A program made the translations under genes and the position numbers. The notes beneath the pieces are model-generated. The model made no database searches. It saw only the letters and a list, made by a program, of their open reading frames with translations, and had not been told where the DNA came from. A DNA stretch of 31,269 nt from a virus. Its lineage: Duplodnaviria; Heunggongvirae; Uroviricota; Caudoviricetes. Location: IMG/VR virus record IMGVR_UViG_2651869696_000013. One strand, given 5' to 3'. Of this stretch, positions 3,588 to 10,515 are shown piece by piece; position 1 is the first letter of the stretch, and each line of letters starts with the position of its first letter.

Positions 3588-3859
3588 GCATTCGTATTGA
3601 AATTGGCGAACGTTATGTGGTTACCAGTGACAGCTTCCAGTTTATTCTCCACGAGAAAAAGAGAGCGGAAAGCGGTAAAAACGCCGGTCAGGAGTGGCTG
3701 GCGGTGGTTGGTTATTACCCGAAATTAAGCCAGCTCGTTTCCGGCCTGATGCATCACGATATTCTGACCGGAAGCGCAAAATCTTTTGCCGATTTAAACG
3801 CGCAGGTTGAGCAACTCAGCAAGCGTTGCTCAGAGGCTTTTGGCTCACATGGCCGTTAA
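3584..3859 (+). CDS. small early hypothetical protein
   Basis: 91-aa ORF, GGAGAA RBS, overlaps the A start. Confidence 0.55.
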   Translation: MSIRIEIGERYVVTSDSFQFILHEKKRAESGKNAGQEWLAVVGYYPKLSQLVSGLMHHDILTGSAKSFADLNAQVEQLSKRCSEAFGSHGR

Positions 3860-6134
3860 AGCCTCCGGGCGTTTTGTCCCTCCGTCAGCATTTGCCGCAG
3901 GCACCGGTAAGGCGTTTACCGGTGCTTATGCATGGAACGCGCCACGCGAGGCCGTCGGGCGCGAAAGACCCCTTACACGTGACGAGATGCGTCAGGTGCA
4001 AGGTGTTTTATCCACGATTAACCGCCTGCCTTACTTTTTGCGCTCGCTGTTTACTTCACGCTATGACTACATCCGGCGCAATAAAAGCCCGGTGCACGGG
4101 TTTTATTTCCTCACATCCACTTTTCAGCGTCGTTTATGGCCGCGCATTGAGCGCGTGAATCAGCGCCATGAAATGAACACCGACGCGTCGTTGCTGTTTC
4201 TGGCAGAGCGCGACCAGTATGCGCGCCTGCCGGGGATGAATGACAAGGAGCTGAAAAAGTTTGCCGCCCGTATCTCATCACAGCTTTTCATGATGTATGA
4301 GGAACTCTGCGATGCCTGGGTGGATGCGCATGGCGAGAAAGAATCGCTGTTTACGGATGAGGCGCAGGCTCACCTCTATGGTCATGTTGCTGGCGCTGCA
4401 CGTGCTTTCAATATTTCCCCTCTCTACTGGAAAAAATACCGTAAAGGACAGATGACCACGAGGCAGGCATATTCTGCCATTGCCCGCCTGTTTAACGATG
4501 AGTGGTGGACTCATCAGCTTAAAGGCCAGCGTATGCGCTGGCATGAGGCGTTACTGATTGCTGTCGGGGAGGTCAATAAAGACCGTTCTCCTTATGCCAG
4601 TAAACATGCCATTCGTGATGTGCGTGCGCGCCGCCAGGCAAATCTGGAGTTTCTTAAATCGTGTGACCTTGAGAACAGGGAAACCGGCGAGCGCATCGAC
4701 CTTATCAGTAAGGTGATGGGCAGTATTTCTAATCCTGAAATTCGCCGGATGGAGCTGATGAACACCATTGCCGGTATTGAGCGTTACGCCGCTGCAGAGG
4801 GTGATGTGGGGATGTTTATCACGCTGACCGCGCCGTCAAAGTATCACCCGACACGTCAGGTCGGAAAAGGCGAAAGTAAAACCGTGCAGCTTAATCACGG
4901 CTGGAATGATGAGGCATTTAATCCAAAGGATGCGCAGCGTTATCTCTGCCGTATCTGGAGCCTGATGCGCACGGCATTCAAGGATAATGATTTACAGGTC
5001 TACGGTTTGCGTGTCGTCGAGCCACACCACGACGGAACTCCGCACTGGCATATGATGCTTTTTTGTAATCCACGCCAGCGTAACCAGATTATTGAAATCA
5101 TGCGTCGCTACGCGCTCAAAGAGGATGGAGACGAAAGAGGAGCCGCGCGAAACCGTTTTCAGGCAAAACACCTTAATCGGGGCGGTGCTGCGGGGTATAT
5201 CGCGAAATACATCTCAAAAAACATCGACGGCTATGCACTGGATGGTCAGCTCGATAACGATACTGGCAGGCCGCTGAAAGATACTGCTGCGGCTGTTACC
5301 GCATGGGCGTCAACGTGGCGCATTCCGCAATTTAAAACGGTTGGTCTGCCGACAATGGGGGCTTACCGTGAACTACGCAAATTGCCTCGCGGTGTCAGCA
5401 TTGCTGATGAGTTTGACGAGCGCGTCGAGGCTGCACGCGCCGCTGCAGACAGTGGTGATTTTGCGTTGTATATCAGCGCGCAGGGCGGGGCAAATGTCCC
5501 GCGCGATTGTCAGACTGTCAGGGTCGCCCGTAGCCCGTCGGATGACGTTAACGAGTACGAGGAAGAAGTCGAGAGAGTGGTCGGCATTTACGCGCCGCAT
5601 CTCGGCGCGCGTCATATTCATATCACCAGAACGACGGACTGGCGCATTGTGCCGAAAGTTCCGGTCGTTGAGCCTTTGACTTTAAAAAGCGGCATCGCCG
5701 CGCCTCGGAGTCCTGTCAATAACTGTGGAAAGCTCAACGGTGGTGATACTTCGTTACCGGCTCCCACACCTTCTGAGCACGCCGCAGCCGTGCTTAATCT
5801 GGTTGATGACGGTGTTATTGAATGGAATGAAACTGAGGTCGTGAGGGCGCTCAGGGGCGCATTAAAACACGACCTGCGAACGCCAAACCGTCAGCAAAGA
5901 AACGGAAGCCCGTTAAAACCGCATGAAATTGCACCATCTGCCAGACTGATCCGGTCGGAACGATTGCAAATCACCCGTATCCGCGTTGACCTTGCTCAGA
6001 ACGGTATCAGGCCGCAGCGATGGGAGCTTGAGGCGCTGGCGCGTGGCGCGACCGTAAATTATGACGGGAAAAAATTCACGTATCCGGTCGCTGATGAATG
6101 GCCGGGATTCTCAACAGTAATGGAGTGGACATGA
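3849..6134 (+). CDS. A: rolling-circle replication initiator endonuclease gpA
   Basis: 761-aa product from ATG 3849 (MAVKASGRF...); HUH-like PHWHMMLF and paired tyrosines in GYIAKYISKN typical of the P2 A nickase. Confidence 0.92.
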   Translation: MAVKASGRFVPPSAFAAGTGKAFTGAYAWNAPREAVGRERPLTRDEMRQVQGVLSTINRLPYFLRSLFTSRYDYIRRNKSPVHGFYFLTSTFQRRLWPRIERVNQRHEMNTDASLLFLAERDQYARLPGMNDKELKKFAARISSQLFMMYEELCDAWVDAHGEKESLFTDEAQAHLYGHVAGAARAFNISPLYWKKYRKGQMTTRQAYSAIARLFNDEWWTHQLKGQRMRWHEALLIAVGEVNKDRSPYASKHAIRDVRARRQANLEFLKSCDLENRETGERIDLISKVMGSISNPEIRRMELMNTIAGIERYAAAEGDVGMFITLTAPSKYHPTRQVGKGESKTVQLNHGWNDEAFNPKDAQRYLCRIWSLMRTAFKDNDLQVYGLRVVEPHHDGTPHWHMMLFCNPRQRNQIIEIMRRYALKEDGDERGAARNRFQAKHLNRGGAAGYIAKYISKNIDGYALDGQLDNDTGRPLKDTAAAVTAWASTWRIPQFKTVGLPTMGAYRELRKLPRGVSIADEFDERVEAARAAADSGDFALYISAQGGANVPRDCQTVRVARSPSDDVNEYEEEVERVVGIYAPHLGARHIHITRTTDWRIVPKVPVVEPLTLKSGIAAPRSPVNNCGKLNGGDTSLPAPTPSEHAAAVLNLVDDGVIEWNETEVVRALRGALKHDLRTPNRQQRNGSPLKPHEIAPSARLIRSERLQITRIRVDLAQNGIRPQRWELEALARGATVNYDGKKFTYPVADEWPGFSTVMEWT

Positions 6135-6586
6135 TGGCAAAAATTCACGAGGTAAAGCTGCACGCAAAATATTTCGACCTTGTGCTGGAAGGAAAGAAAC
6201 GCGCAGAGTTTCGGAAAAATGACCGTAATTATGAGCGCGGGGACACGTTGATTTTGCATGAATGGGTGCAGGGTGTGTATACGGGGCGAAAGGTTGAAGC
6301 CCGGATAACAGATGTTACTGACCTGTCAGACTGGCTGGAAGATTATGTCTTGCTAAGTATTGAGCTGCTTAATACAGGTGCATATGAGATTGTGAACTGG
6401 AAAGAACTTAGTGAGCGTGGTCTGGTATTCAGAATTAATCATGAAATTATGCATCAGCTCGGCCTTGCTGTTATGTATGAACCAGAGACGGGGATGTCTG
6501 GCGGGGCAATGGTTGCCACGGATGGAGCATGGAACTATTCAGATGAACAGATGGAGCGTGCACAGCAAAACGGGTGGCTTGGATAA
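6131..6586 (+). CDS. ASCH/DUF3850-like domain protein
   Basis: ATG overlaps the A stop; N-terminal EVKLHAKYFDLVLEGKKRAEFRKNDRNYERGDTLILHEW resembles the ASCH (PUA-like) fold signature; call is by recalled similarity. Confidence 0.6.
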   Translation: MMAKIHEVKLHAKYFDLVLEGKKRAEFRKNDRNYERGDTLILHEWVQGVYTGRKVEARITDVTDLSDWLEDYVLLSIELLNTGAYEIVNWKELSERGLVFRINHEIMHQLGLAVMYEPETGMSGGAMVATDGAWNYSDEQMERAQQNGWLG

Positions 6587-6792
6587 TGCACAGAATACCA
6601 GGCGAGATACCTCAGCATAAAACTAAAAATATCAAGCTGATGGCCATTGTTCACCGTCTGCAGCGGATTATGGTCAACGAAAATCTGACGCCAGATGAGC
6701 TAGTCGGGTGTGCCGAAATAGTCCGGGATAATTACGGGCGGTTTAACCATATCGGTCAATCAAGAGTTACGCCACCACCACGAAGACGATAG
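6586..6792 (+). CDS. small hypothetical protein
   Basis: 68-aa ORF; ATG overlaps the upstream stop (TAATG); no recognisable motif. Confidence 0.4.
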   Translation: MHRIPGEIPQHKTKNIKLMAIVHRLQRIMVNENLTPDELVGCAEIVRDNYGRFNHIGQSRVTPPPRRR

Positions 6793-6913
6793 AGAACGCC
6801 GCCAGTCGTGAAACTTGTTTTCAGGGCTGGCGGGGTTGAACAACTCGCGAAGCGAGGCGTTAGTTGACAGTCATATTTTTACTGCGTTGGTGCTGGTTTT
6901 TGACGGTTGAAAG

Positions 6914-6938
6914 GAGTTAGCTCGGAGAGCTAAAGCTA
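6914..6938. repeat. nested palindrome GTTAGCTC-GGA-GAGCTAA-AGCTAAC upstream of the cargo cassette
   Basis: Read directly: TTAGCTC / GAGCTAA inverted repeat with 3-nt spacer, plus a second AGCTAAC copy that could pair alternatively. Confidence 0.3.
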
Positions 6939-7021
6939 ACAACTTACAAATATTCAAAAGTAAGCTTCCTGTTGCTAACATAAGATCGATTTTTTATGTG
7001 GATGATGCAAAAAGGATAGCT

Positions 7022-7753
7022 ATGGATATTGTAATCGCTTTTCTATCACTCGCTTTTTTCGTTGCTTTTTTCATCGGGTTAATCAAGCCATCACTGGTGC
7101 GGATGCCAAACCGTAAACGTGCAAGTGCGGTTTATCTCGGAGGTGGTTTTGCATTGAGCATAATTGGTTCAATACTCTACCCAACAGAAAAAAGCCAGCC
7201 AGTTGCTAAAACTGAAACAGCAACCGTAGCAGAACATCAGGCTCAAAAAACATTCGAATATACTGAAAAAACACTCAAGGAATATCGGAACGAGCCAAAG
7301 AAGACTCGACACGATATTGTGAATAGTTACATTAACTTTAAGAAAGTGCCAGTCACCGCATCAGATGCATTTTATGCTTGCATGAGTGAGTATACATTTA
7401 CCAAAGATGATGAGTTGAAACTCGGTGATGTTCTTGGATGGTGCTTTAATGATTATGAAAATGACCCGAATTCACTAAACAATAAAATCAATCTTGATAC
7501 ATTTCAGAGCAATTTTAGTGGTTGGGATGGTTCTTATCGTCCATTGGAAAAACTAATTAAGGATAATATGAACGATGATTCATCTTATAAACATGTGTCA
7601 ACGGTATATCATTTGGTTTTGAATAAAGACCCGCACGCCATTGTGAAAACCACATTTCGTGGCACTAATGCTTATGGAGGAGTAGTTAAACAGACTATTG
7701 CTGCGCGTGTCGACATCCGAACGGGCGAAGTCGTTTCAGTATTAGATAACTAA
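7022..7753 (+). CDS. cargo membrane protein: two N-terminal TM helices plus ~170-aa soluble domain; function unknown
   Basis: ATG 7022 with AAGGA 6 nt upstream (track start 6998 is GTG); hydrophobic stretches IVIAFLSLAFFVAFFIGLI and AVYLGGGFALSIIGSILY; AT-rich. Confidence 0.7.
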   Translation: MDIVIAFLSLAFFVAFFIGLIKPSLVRMPNRKRASAVYLGGGFALSIIGSILYPTEKSQPVAKTETATVAEHQAQKTFEYTEKTLKEYRNEPKKTRHDIVNSYINFKKVPVTASDAFYACMSEYTFTKDDELKLGDVLGWCFNDYENDPNSLNNKINLDTFQSNFSGWDGSYRPLEKLIKDNMNDDSSYKHVSTVYHLVLNKDPHAIVKTTFRGTNAYGGVVKQTIAARVDIRTGEVVSVLDN

Positions 7754-7788
7754 TCGTTGATGCCGTATTGATACTTGTTATACTAGTG

Positions 7789-7818
7789 GTGGAACGAGAC
7801 TGCAATAGTCTGTTCCAC
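7789..7818 (+). other. stem-loop between the two cargo genes
   Basis: GTGGAACGAGACT-GCAAT-AGTCTGTTCCAC, about 12 bp stem with one bulge; no downstream U-tract, so not a classic intrinsic terminator. Confidence 0.3.
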
Positions 7819-7895
7819 AACAGGAGTAATTACCTTGACTGTAAGTTGCTTTTATTGAGGGAACTATGAAGTTTAAGACTGAATTGAGTTGAAAA

Positions 7896-9155
7896 TTGCA
7901 TGACTCGGTAGTGTTTGATTTGAAAAAAGACCTGGTAAAATTAGAGGGAAACCTAAAAAATACAGATTTGTTGTTGTCGTTTCAGTTCAAAATAATAAGG
8001 AATATAATTAGAAGTGAAAGGATGATCAAAGGATTAAAGTCTTTCTTAGGGGAACTAAAGGCAACAAAAAGAAAAGGTGGTTTAAAAAAAGAACAATCTA
8101 AACTTATTAAGGAAAATATTAAGAGTGTTGAGCAGGCTATTGATGATGTGAAATTTAAAATATATATCTTCAAAATGTTTGGTGATAGTGTTGCTTTTTT
8201 GTATTTGGATAAGTTTGATATTAAGCATTTTTTCTATAATGTTGTGGATTACAGTCCCAAGGAGTCAGCGGGCTATATGGGAGGGAAGGATGGCTTAAAA
8301 GAAGAATGGGAATTGGTGAAGAAGGCCTGCAAGGCTGGTGTTCCTACGTTACTCAATGATATTACAATGAGTATGAGGCATGGTGATGTTTGTTTACTTG
8401 GTGAAGGTGCACCAGTACTGGTGGAGGTGAAATCAAGTCAAAATAAAAATGATCGTGTTGAACGTCAAAAAAATAACCTTAATAGACTGGCTGGATTTTT
8501 AGCAGAAGATAAAGCTGAAGATTTTAGAGGGATGCCATTAGTGTTAAGGAAAGAACTGTGTTTTTCAGAAGTTACATATAAAAAAGAATTTAATGAGCAT
8601 CTGAATGTATGCAGGAAAAAAGGAATTTCATGGGTAAGGCTAGAAGATGGATTTTATGTGGTATCTAATCGTGGCTGTGATCTGGATATAGCATTATCAC
8701 AGTTGGATCTTAGAGGGAGGGAAATTGCACCTATATTTTTGAATGAATATAAAAATAATCAGTTGTGGGTTCCTTTAACTCCATTTGTTAATCTTATAAA
8801 TGATGCGCGTGATTTGTGTGACTTTATAAATGGGGAGTTAACTATTCTCTGTGTTCTTGATTTGGATTGTTTTAAACAAATAGCTTTGAATGAAGGGTTT
8901 GAGCTTGTTTTTGTCGATGGTGAAGACTATTCGATGATATTTAAAGAATTAGGTAGCTCATTGATTTGGGGTGTGTCATGGCAAATGATGCTTCGCACTC
9001 CTTTAGAAATGGTGTCAATGTCTTGGTTAATTAAAGATTCAATTGATAGATTTAAACGTTTACAAAAGCAACATGCTGAGATGCAGCCTGCCACTGATGT
9101 TAATACATCCGAAACCTCCTTGTTTGAAAAATATAGGCCTCTTTTTACAAAGTAG
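7896..9155 (+). CDS. cargo protein with PD-(D/E)xK-like nuclease signature; function unknown
   Basis: Long ORF in AT-rich DNA; track start is TTG 7896, first ATG is 8022, so start is uncertain; motif GDVCLLGEGAPVLVEVK (D164 ... E177-V-K179, nt 8385-8432); no Walker A motif seen. Confidence 0.7.
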   Translation: MHDSVVFDLKKDLVKLEGNLKNTDLLLSFQFKIIRNIIRSERMIKGLKSFLGELKATKRKGGLKKEQSKLIKENIKSVEQAIDDVKFKIYIFKMFGDSVAFLYLDKFDIKHFFYNVVDYSPKESAGYMGGKDGLKEEWELVKKACKAGVPTLLNDITMSMRHGDVCLLGEGAPVLVEVKSSQNKNDRVERQKNNLNRLAGFLAEDKAEDFRGMPLVLRKELCFSEVTYKKEFNEHLNVCRKKGISWVRLEDGFYVVSNRGCDLDIALSQLDLRGREIAPIFLNEYKNNQLWVPLTPFVNLINDARDLCDFINGELTILCVLDLDCFKQIALNEGFELVFVDGEDYSMIFKELGSSLIWGVSWQMMLRTPLEMVSMSWLIKDSIDRFKRLQKQHAEMQPATDVNTSETSLFEKYRPLFTK

Positions 9156-9292
9156 TCAGATGCTGTAGGTGTATATGCTATTGCATTAATTTGCATGCAA
9201 AACAAGTAGAGGTAAAAACTCTTACAGGCTGCTTGGGGGATAGCTTTTGAATGCTAATGCATTTGCATTCAAATTGCCCCATGAAGCGGGCG

Positions 9293-9311
9293 GGCGAGGC
9301 GGGGAAAGCAC
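9293..9311. other. cos site (P2-type 19-nt cohesive end GGCGAGGCGGGGAAAGCAC)
   Basis: Exact match to the P2 cohesive-end sequence as recalled; located between the cargo region and the Q 3' end, as in P2. Confidence 0.7.
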
Positions 9312-9453
9312 TGCGCGCTGGCGGTGGTGCTGATTTTATTTTTTCAGCGTCTGAGCGCGTCGTGAAGGCGCTTAGTCTGCCCGTTGAGGCGTTGGTGTGT
9401 CTGCGGGGTGTTTTGTGCGGTGGTGAGCGTGTGAGGGCGTGATGGCGGGTTGT

Positions 9454-9475
9454 AAAAAAGCCGCCCGCAGGCGGC
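9454..9475 (-). terminator. rho-independent terminator downstream of Q
   Basis: On the minus strand: GCCGCC-UGCG-GGCGGC hairpin followed by UUUUUU, starting about 5 nt after the Q stop. Confidence 0.55.
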
Positions 9476-9480
9476 GATGT

Positions 9481-10515
9481 TCAGCCGTTGTCAGTGTCCA
9501 GTGAGTAGTTTTTAAAGCGGATGACCTCCTGACCGAGCCAGCCGTTCATCTCGCGGATCCTGTCCTGTAACGGGATAAGCTCATTGCGGACAAAGACCTT
9601 TGCCACTTTCTCAATATCTCCCAGTGACCCGACGTTCTCCGGCTTGCCGCCCATCAACTGAAAGGGGATGCGGTGTGCGTCCAGCAGGTCAGCGGCGCTG
9701 GCTTTTTTGATATTAAAAAAATCGTCCTTCGTCGCCACTTCACTGAGCGGGATAATTTTAATGCCGTCGGCTTTCCCTTGCGGGGCATAGAGAAACAGAT
9801 TTTTAAAGTTGTTGCGGCCTTTCGACTTCACCATGTTTTCGCGGAGCATTTCGATATCGTTGCGATCCTGCACGGCATCGGTGACGTACATGATGTATCC
9901 GGCATGTGCGCCGTTTTCGTAATACTTGCGGCGGAACAGCGTGGCCGACTCATTCAGCCAGGCAGAGTTAAGGGCGCTGAGATATTCCGGCAGGCCGTAC
10001 AGCTCCTGATTAATATCCGGCTCCAGCAGGTGAAACACGGAGCCGGGCGCGAAAGGTGTCGGCTCATGGAAGGACGGCACCCACCAGTAAACATCCTCTT
10101 CCACGCCACGGCGGGTATATTTTGCCGGTGAGGTTTCCAGTCTGATGACCTTACCGGTGGTGCTGTAACGCTTTTCCAGAAACGCATTACCGAACACCAG
10201 AAAATCCAGCACAAAGCGGCTGAAATCCTGCTGGGAAAGCCACGGATGCGGGATAAATGTCGAGGCCAGAATATTACGTTTGACGTAAATCGGTGAGCTG
10301 TGATGCACGGCAGCACGCAGGCTTTTTGCCAGACCGGTAAAGCTGACCGGTGGCTCATACCATCTGCCGTTACTGATGCACTCGACGTAATCCAGAATGT
10401 CACGGCGGTCGAGTACCGGCACCGGCTCACCAAAGGTGAATGCCTCCATTTTCGGGGCGCTGGCGGTCATTTTTTTTGCCGCAGGTTGCGGTGTTTTCCC
10501 TTTTTTCTTGCTCAT
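9481..10515 (-). CDS. Q: portal protein gpQ
   Basis: 344-aa ORF, P2 Q-like sequence and length; start overlaps the P stop (ATGA). Confidence 0.93.
   Translation of the reverse strand: MSKKKGKTPQPAAKKMTASAPKMEAFTFGEPVPVLDRRDILDYVECISNGRWYEPPVSFTGLAKSLRAAVHHSSPIYVKRNILASTFIPHPWLSQQDFSRFVLDFLVFGNAFLEKRYSTTGKVIRLETSPAKYTRRGVEEDVYWWVPSFHEPTPFAPGSVFHLLEPDINQELYGLPEYLSALNSAWLNESATLFRRKYYENGAHAGYIMYVTDAVQDRNDIEMLRENMVKSKGRNNFKNLFLYAPQGKADGIKIIPLSEVATKDDFFNIKKASAADLLDAHRIPFQLMGGKPENVGSLGDIEKVAKVFVRNELIPLQDRIREMNGWLGQEVIRFKNYSLDTDNG

Follow-up and report, generated by a model that had tools for sequence, protein, structure and literature searches.

Gene A of the P2-like prophage described here is a further copy of a known, barely characterized type of phage protein, Orf97 of coliphage 186, that is already listed in a catalogue of hotspot cargo. 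This assignment ties an anonymous, common gene of the P2 hotspot to a phenotype that has been on record for 186 Orf97 for thirty years. Specifically, the GenBank record of 186 carries a note on orf97 stating that "expression from plasmid blocks 186 infection". This note, coupled with the prediction that a conserved domain of the binding type is displayed in the periplasm and with the behavior of gene A as autonomous cargo, leads us to consider it moderately probable that the gene A product is an autonomous superinfection-exclusion protein that acts at the level of the envelope and blocks a step after adsorption, at least for 186-type phages.

The analysis also supplies a testable model, in which an inner-membrane hairpin displays a disulfide-bonded periplasmic domain. 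If the proposed role is confirmed, a widely distributed superinfection-exclusion family would be added to the annotation of Enterobacterales prophages. Confirmation would likewise provide the first functional handle on a large family of extracytoplasmic domains that has no Pfam model.

The gene A locus and its counterpart in coliphage 186

The window, which is the whole stretch of 31,269 nucleotides that was analyzed, is a complete P2-like (Peduoviridae) prophage. It spans an integrase ORF at its left to gpD and ogr at its right, with gpA and the portal gene between these ends, and gene A lies in its accessory region. The site of gene A, between gpA/orf91 and the portal gene Q (Table 1), is the hotspot where P2 has tin and old, and this hotspot is known for abundant anti-phage cargo (Rousset et al., 2022; PMC9122126). 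The GC content of gene A (38.8%) and of gene B, the next gene downstream (34.1%), is far below that of the flanking gpA and portal genes (~54%), which is a composition typical of acquired cargo. Over a 3-kb stretch around the two genes, the window and a prophage of E. coli TUM14771 share 99.8% identity, with five differences in all and an identical gene A. The corresponding ORFs of TUM14771 are labeled in RefSeq as hypothetical proteins.

Table 1. Features of the window (positions in the window) and of loci elsewhere that carry relatives of genes A or B (L numbers; positions within each locus). KD, Kyte-Doolittle; AF2, AlphaFold2
Feature	Position	Strand	Remarks
gpA (replication gene)	3807-6134		
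orf91-like gene, DUF3850/ASCH	6134-6586		related to P2 orf91
Small ORF	6586-6792		directly after orf91-like gene
Upstream non-coding region	6864..7021	+	accompanies gene A in P2-like prophages of E. coli
Gene A	7022..7753	+	243 aa; orthologue, by sequence, of coliphage 186 Orf97 (phrog_3403; RefSeq WP_000355825)
TM helix 1, residues 3-21	7028..7084	+	KD 2.95; AF2 helix 2-21
Basic loop KPSLVRMPNRKRAS, residues 22-35	7085..7126	+	predicted cytoplasmic
TM helix 2, residues 34-52	7121..7177	+	KD 1.68; AF2 helix 31-52
Variable disordered linker, residues 53-77	7178..7252	+	33% identity, indels; low pLDDT
Conserved globular domain, residues 78-243	7253..7750	+	predicted periplasmic
Gene B	7866-9155	+	
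Portal gene Q	9481-10515		strand opposite to gene A
Genes following A elsewhere	L001 4461-5159; L002 4347-5045; L006 4316-4972; L005 4392-5066; L007 4315-4911; L009 4343-5125; L023 4755-5723		
B relatives in P4-like satellites / Citrobacter P2-like hotspot	L102 4001-5256; L012-L014 4001-5290; L104 4001-5290		

A conserved element of 69 nt, located at positions 6795-6863, can form a hairpin of -37 kcal/mol (z=-4.9) with no U-run behind it. P2, Wphi and other P2-like phages are homologous to the window up to a point just past this element, which defines the left edge of the variable hotspot. The element is 84% identical to its counterpart in 186, where it lies downstream of orf97, whereas the window copy lies upstream of gene A. 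Rfam gave no match over the whole window at gathering thresholds, nor over positions 6500-9500 (the 69-nt element included) at E<=1. In the same part of the prophage, the orf91-like gene encodes a C-terminal DUF7415 in addition to its DUF3850/ASCH domain, and its product comprises 150 aa versus 109 aa in P2 Orf91.

Gene A is a real and correctly delimited ORF, as claimed in a first-pass annotation that had been made from the letters of the window and its open reading frames. The frame extends from an ATG at 7022 to a TAA at 7751-7753, and the Shine-Dalgarno sequence AAGGA sits 7-11 nt before the ATG. The RefSeq protein WP_000355825 of E. coli TUM14771 is identical to the gene A product, with matching coordinates, and phrog_3403 covers residues 1-243 of 243 from the same ATG (E=1.3e-145). 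Comparison with seven orthologues yields dN/dS values of 0.05-0.16, and gene A is under strong purifying selection.

The statement that the product has no recognized motif also stands, given that searches of Pfam, NCBIfam and PADLOC (PADLOC-DB 2.0.0) returned no match to gene A at E<=1. Gene B likewise lacks a match in these collections (for PADLOC, none at E<=1), and the only PHROGs matched by either gene are families of unknown function. The soluble part had furthermore been described as rich in Asn, Asp and Lys; this enrichment is present in residues 60-243 (9.2% K, 8.2% N and 8.2% D), but it is only modest.

The earlier description placed gene A at the position of P2 tin and left homology to Tin undecided. 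The position is shared in that both genes occupy the gpA-Q hotspot, and the two proteins are of similar size (253 aa for Tin versus 243 aa). The comparison does not extend to transcription: P2 tin and old are minus-strand genes whose transcript starts have been mapped, and tin is co-transcribed with old, whereas gene A lies on the gpA strand and is not part of an old-tin transcript. A single pairwise BLASTP comparison of gene A with P2 Tin (NP_046797, from NC_001895) produced a best segment of 15.4 bits (E=1.3), and gene A was ruled out as a Tin homologue on the grounds that no similarity is detectable. Tin, which targets gp32 of T-even phages, is soluble and resides in the cytoplasm. In contrast, the gene A product is a membrane protein whose soluble domain is predicted to lie in the periplasm.

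Judged by its sequence, gene A is orthologous to orf97 of coliphage 186. When phage genomes were searched in translation, its product proved to be 78.7% identical to 186 Orf97 (NP_052294), and the alignment is free of gaps, with 243 codons in each gene. The two phages belong to one family, and both carry the gene in the cos-proximal accessory region downstream of the replication gene. The name has been used elsewhere as well: ORF47 of VHML is annotated as orf97-like, and RAST-derived annotation of two P2-like coliphages names the gene "Orf97". 186 Orf97 is annotated as blocking 186 infection, an activity that the window copy may share.

The genetic setting differs between the two phages. According to the 186 record, the SOS operon consists of the LexA-controlled promoter p95, tum, the partial terminator t95a, orf97 and the terminator t95b, so that orf97 follows tum under LexA control and is the last gene before cos. 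Gene A of the window, in contrast, precedes another cargo gene and is not a member of an SOS operon, since no tum homologue was found in the window and no LexA box was matched upstream of gene A. The non-coding region upstream of gene A, which accompanies the gene in E. coli, shows 95% column identity when eight loci are aligned, and homology to 186 begins only at 6990. A sigma-70 scan of this upstream region found no consensus match, with counts equal to the shuffled expectation, and the alignment of the eight upstream regions revealed no convincing -10 element.

The spread of gene A was surveyed by using one genome per species and checking flanks to 4 kb, which uncovered gene A relatives at 76 loci. 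Sixteen of these relatives are full-length orthologues, all from Enterobacterales. Thirteen of the orthologues lie beside gpA, tum, portal, ogr or gpD, and the other three have no such marker within 4 kb. Since seven of the 16 directly follow tum, this arrangement is a feature of a lineage and not a requirement of the family. In Peduoviridae-type prophages the gene occupies three accessory positions, which are after gpA, after tum, and beside ogr/gpD. It stands alone at the prophage end, next to ogr and gpD, in Photorhabdus and Xenorhabdus, alone with no room for a partner in Kluyvera and Erwinia tracheiphila, and alone after tail gene D in VHML.

By frequency, the gene A family ranks twelfth among the 'systems' that Rousset et al. 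(2022) catalogued in P2 hotspots of E. coli. Their Table S5B lists it as single-gene system 12, "2 TM", with 210 occurrences, and their Table S5A includes the exact protein WP_000355825 (PMC9122126). System 12 is absent from the systems cloned in that study, and the catalogue gives neither a function nor the link to 186 Orf97. Our literature search on the family returned nothing beyond the 186 record: papers on Salmonella BTP5 name orf97 only as a homologue, the supplements of Vassallo et al. (2022) contain no match to gene A, and the 2026 NAR paper on P2 and P4 does not discuss it.

Membrane anchor, topology and fold

The claim of two N-terminal transmembrane helices was borne out. Kyte-Doolittle hydrophobicity, averaged over 19 residues, peaks at both of the spans listed in Table 1, and the AlphaFold2 helices agree with them; the span assigned to the second helix shares the last two residues of the loop (34-35). 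Among 38 orthologues, the N-terminus is devoid of K or R in every sequence, and the loop between the helices carries 3-5 Lys/Arg (mean 4.7 K+R) and zero acidic residues. By the positive-inside rule, a basic loop combined with an N-terminus that lacks basic residues would place the loop in the cytoplasm and both termini in the periplasm. The loop is also the best-conserved part of the membrane anchor, with 78% identity to the window protein across the 38 orthologues, versus 33% for the linker.

In the AlphaFold2 model, pLDDT is below 50 for residues 55-74 of the linker and above 90 for the globular domain. This domain comprises a helical subdomain that contains C120 and C141, followed by a subdomain composed of a helix and a four-stranded sheet. 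The two cysteines are the only ones in the soluble domain. They are invariant in 38 of 38 orthologues and are kept in 33 of the 36 sequences of an alignment that adds distant relatives.

The relatives of the domain carry a variety of anchors. Some distant relatives have a lipoprotein signal peptide, others have a cytoplasmic zinc ribbon and one TM helix, a cytoplasmic domain of ~70 residues and one TM helix, or the same two-helix hairpin as gene A, with a conserved 'GLIKPS' turn. These anchors precede either the whole gene A domain or its C-terminal 85 residues alone, and all of the types seen would put the domain outside the cytoplasm. Together, the helices, the basic loop, the Cys pair and the anchors of relatives predict that the protein resides in the inner membrane with its soluble domain in the periplasm. 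The first-pass annotation had implied that the soluble domain faces the cytoplasm; the basic loop, the Cys pair and the lipoprotein relatives instead place residues 78-243 in the periplasm. Its broader description of a membrane-anchored accessory ('cargo') protein in the tin/old hotspot, with an unannotated soluble domain, is supported.

Modeling predicts a fold in which an HdeA/B-like helical part is followed by an NTF2-like part. The best fold matches of the domain are HdeB and HdeA, both periplasmic acid-stress chaperones, and these matches cover ~62 residues at 6-18% identity. A Foldseek comparison of the gene A model with the PDB gave nothing at E<=0.001, and a sequence-profile search of solved structures gave nothing below E=1.6. 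The likeness to HdeA and HdeB is one of fold only, and the gene A product, unlike these chaperones, is membrane-anchored and has the extra NTF2-like subdomain.

The resemblance to HdeB and HdeA nevertheless favors an alternative in which the gene A product helps the host or the phage outside exclusion, either through an HdeA/B-like chaperone or stress role in the periplasm or through SOS-induced prophage development. The second possibility is consistent with gene order in 186 and in the seven of 16 species-level orthologues noted above, because a gene that follows tum in a LexA-controlled operon would be expressed on induction. We judge this alternative rather unlikely. Pfam HdeA does not match the gene A product, and the Hde similarity is limited to the short segment of low identity described above. 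Furthermore, the phenotype noted for orf97 in the 186 record is a block of infection. Several nearby ORFs of the early operon are marked 'not essential' in that record, and orf97 carries no essentiality statement. Brumby et al. in 1996 are said to have found orf97 dispensable for induction.

Gene A and the genes that follow it

In the first-pass annotation, gene A was viewed as a membrane-tethered partner, with a sensor or effector role, of a putative nuclease encoded by gene B. Several features would fit such a two-gene defense system. The genes adjoin and are read in one direction, with 112 nt between them, and each has a low GC content; moreover, gene A is directly upstream in 16 of the 16 E. 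coli genomes that have an intact gene B. However, co-occurrence across a wider set of genomes speaks against the pairing. Of 5,426 complete E. coli genomes, 84 carry gene A and 17 carry gene B. A gene B relative was found within 4 kb of a gene A relative at none of the 76 species-level loci, and a gene A relative was found within 4 kb at none of the eight loci where B occurs in other settings. This distribution largely refutes the A+B pairing.

Other observations point the same way. Gene A has at least five other downstream neighbors, or none; a promoter-like site and a 13-bp hairpin separate it from gene B; and gene B of the window has a nonsense mutation at codon 9 while gene A is intact. 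Rousset et al. (2022) curate A and B as separate single-gene systems, with gene B listed as system 138 (16 occurrences; PMC9122126). In addition, a soluble domain that is predicted to be periplasmic would be out of reach of a cytoplasmic nuclease. We regard a two-gene system as very improbable, and conclude that the two genes are independent cassettes that lie one behind the other in a hotspot of recombination.

The promoter-like site between the two genes (positions 7757-7818) consists of TTGATG, a 16-nt spacer and TATACT, with an upstream TG as in extended -10 elements. It is followed by the hairpin, which has a one-base bulge and no U-run. This arrangement suggests that gene B has its own transcription signals.

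The nonsense codon in gene B results from a single substitution. Position 7890 of the window is T where TUM14771 has C, and the change converts CGA (Arg) to TGA at codon 9. Gene B would consequently be inactivated, or would restart at TTG 7896 or GTG 7911. Comparison of a gene B profile with solved structures returned only coiled-coil noise.

Relatives of B that occur without A were found at eight loci, distributed among P4-like satellites, a Citrobacter P2-like hotspot, Ramlibacter and Vibrio. In the satellites they stand alone between psu and int, with 52% identity in E. coli and 50% in Pluralibacter. The Citrobacter relative, which is 70% identical, also stands alone, in the order gpA-B-portal. 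The Ramlibacter relative adjoins an HTH-peptidase M78 gene, and the Vibrio relative adjoins a serine recombinase. The presence of B relatives in both P4-like satellites and a P2-like hotspot indicates that one cassette family occupies both P2 and P4 hotspots, and such sharing of cassettes is rare according to a 2026 survey (PMC13586616).

Where gene A is 92-95% identical at the DNA level, it is followed by at least five unrelated genes, which encode proteins of 198, 218/232, 224 and 260 aa in addition to B. Three of these neighbors are 2-TM proteins of ~220 aa with 24-31% mutual identity. The neighbor families are un-annotated; a neighbor of A in Serratia matches PDC-S31 (DUF2971), a candidate single-gene defense system. 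In E. coli A37, an FRG-domain gene also follows in the A locus.

This variety of neighbors could be explained if gene A were a conserved membrane module, a sensor or an anchor, that serves whichever variable gene follows it, the effectors being swappable. Every E. coli P2-type locus inspected has one same-strand gene of an unrelated family after A, the three 2-TM proteins among them, and homology between loci breaks within the last 15-45 nt of gene A. Strong conservation of the cytoplasmic loop relative to the rest of the anchor would also suit such a module. Yet gene A has no downstream partner in 186, where t95b and then cos follow, or in VHML, Photorhabdus, Xenorhabdus, Kluyvera and Erwinia. 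The partners that do occur share no common domain, and the one in Serratia matches a candidate that is itself a single-gene system. Finally, variable neighbors are to be expected where a recombination hotspot accumulates cassettes that are independent of each other (Rousset et al., 2022; PMC9122126; PMC13586616). We therefore hold a module with swappable effectors to be improbable.

A proposed role at the cell envelope

Exclusion at the envelope is the function that we favor for the gene A product, and the following mechanism is proposed. Gene A would belong to the 'morons', accessory genes of P2/186-family prophages that act autonomously, and its product would be anchored in the inner membrane by a hairpin of two helices. 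The loop, which is short and basic, would reside in the cytoplasm, and the N-terminus and the C-terminal domain of 166 residues (78-243) would reside in the periplasm, where a C120-C141 disulfide probably stabilizes the domain. In this position the protein would most likely block an envelope step in infection by an incoming phage, at least by relatives of the 186 type, and would thus be a superinfection-exclusion protein and neither a sensor in the cytoplasm nor a partner of gene B. The likeliest step would be delivery of the phage genome across the periplasm and the inner membrane. We infer that genome delivery is the blocked step, that the P2-type copy acts like 186 Orf97 although it has neither tum nor LexA control, and that gene A is expressed in the lysogen.

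As proposed, the gene A product would share the characteristics of a class of envelope exclusion proteins that includes Imm and Sp of T4, SieA of P22, gp15 of HK97, Glo of K139 and Ltp of TP-J34, in that it would be a small, phage-encoded membrane or periplasmic protein that imposes a post-adsorption block. Its fold differs from those of the known members, and Pfam, the known exclusion protein families included, shows no similarity to gene A at E<=1. K139 is a P2-like vibriophage that encodes Glo as a periplasmic exclusion/immunity protein (PMC4870250). This phage is not among the records that match gene A in the translated search.

The source of the exclusion phenotype is a one-line GenBank note on the 186 protein expressed from a plasmid. 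Overproduced membrane proteins can block infection non-specifically. The gene A product might instead be an abortive-infection protein or a toxic membrane effector, and the block of 186 might reflect membrane damage or growth arrest. The fact that the sole recorded phenotype comes from plasmid expression of 186 orf97 is consistent with such a protein, as is the observation that TM proteins in defense loci are often suicide effectors (PMC9122126). We consider this explanation unlikely, since the bulk of the gene A product is a well-folded, conserved domain that is predicted to be extracytoplasmic and bears a Cys pair, which suits a binding module better than a pore former. Moreover, some relatives of the domain are lipoproteins without any TM helix, and gene A is kept intact in prophage remnants.

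An exhaustive, profile-free search for relatives of the gene A domain identified 2,093 clusters (50% identity) at E<=0.001. They derive from Proteobacteria, Bacteroidota, Planctomycetota, Verrucomicrobiota, candidate phyla and others, and no Pfam domain covers the gene A region in any relative tested. A more far-reaching reading of these data, which we rate as a long shot, is that the Orf97 domain is the first member with a linked phenotype in a large, un-annotated family of extracytoplasmic domains and serves as a general phage device that blocks genome delivery in the periplasm. In the boldest version of this reading, the 'GLIKPS...RKR' cytoplasmic loop would signal to the variable downstream gene, and gene A would be a reusable envelope sensor with swappable effectors.

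Relatives P0143-P0290 match either residues 78-243 or residues 155-242 of the gene A product. The C-terminal 85 residues, which carry an FSxWDGS...NAYGG motif, also occur alone behind varied N-terminal anchors. P0035, a fusion of DUF5347 with A, was set aside as a probable gene-calling merger. The recurring 2-TM hairpin with the 'GLIKPS' turn resembles an anchor module that is mobile in its own right.
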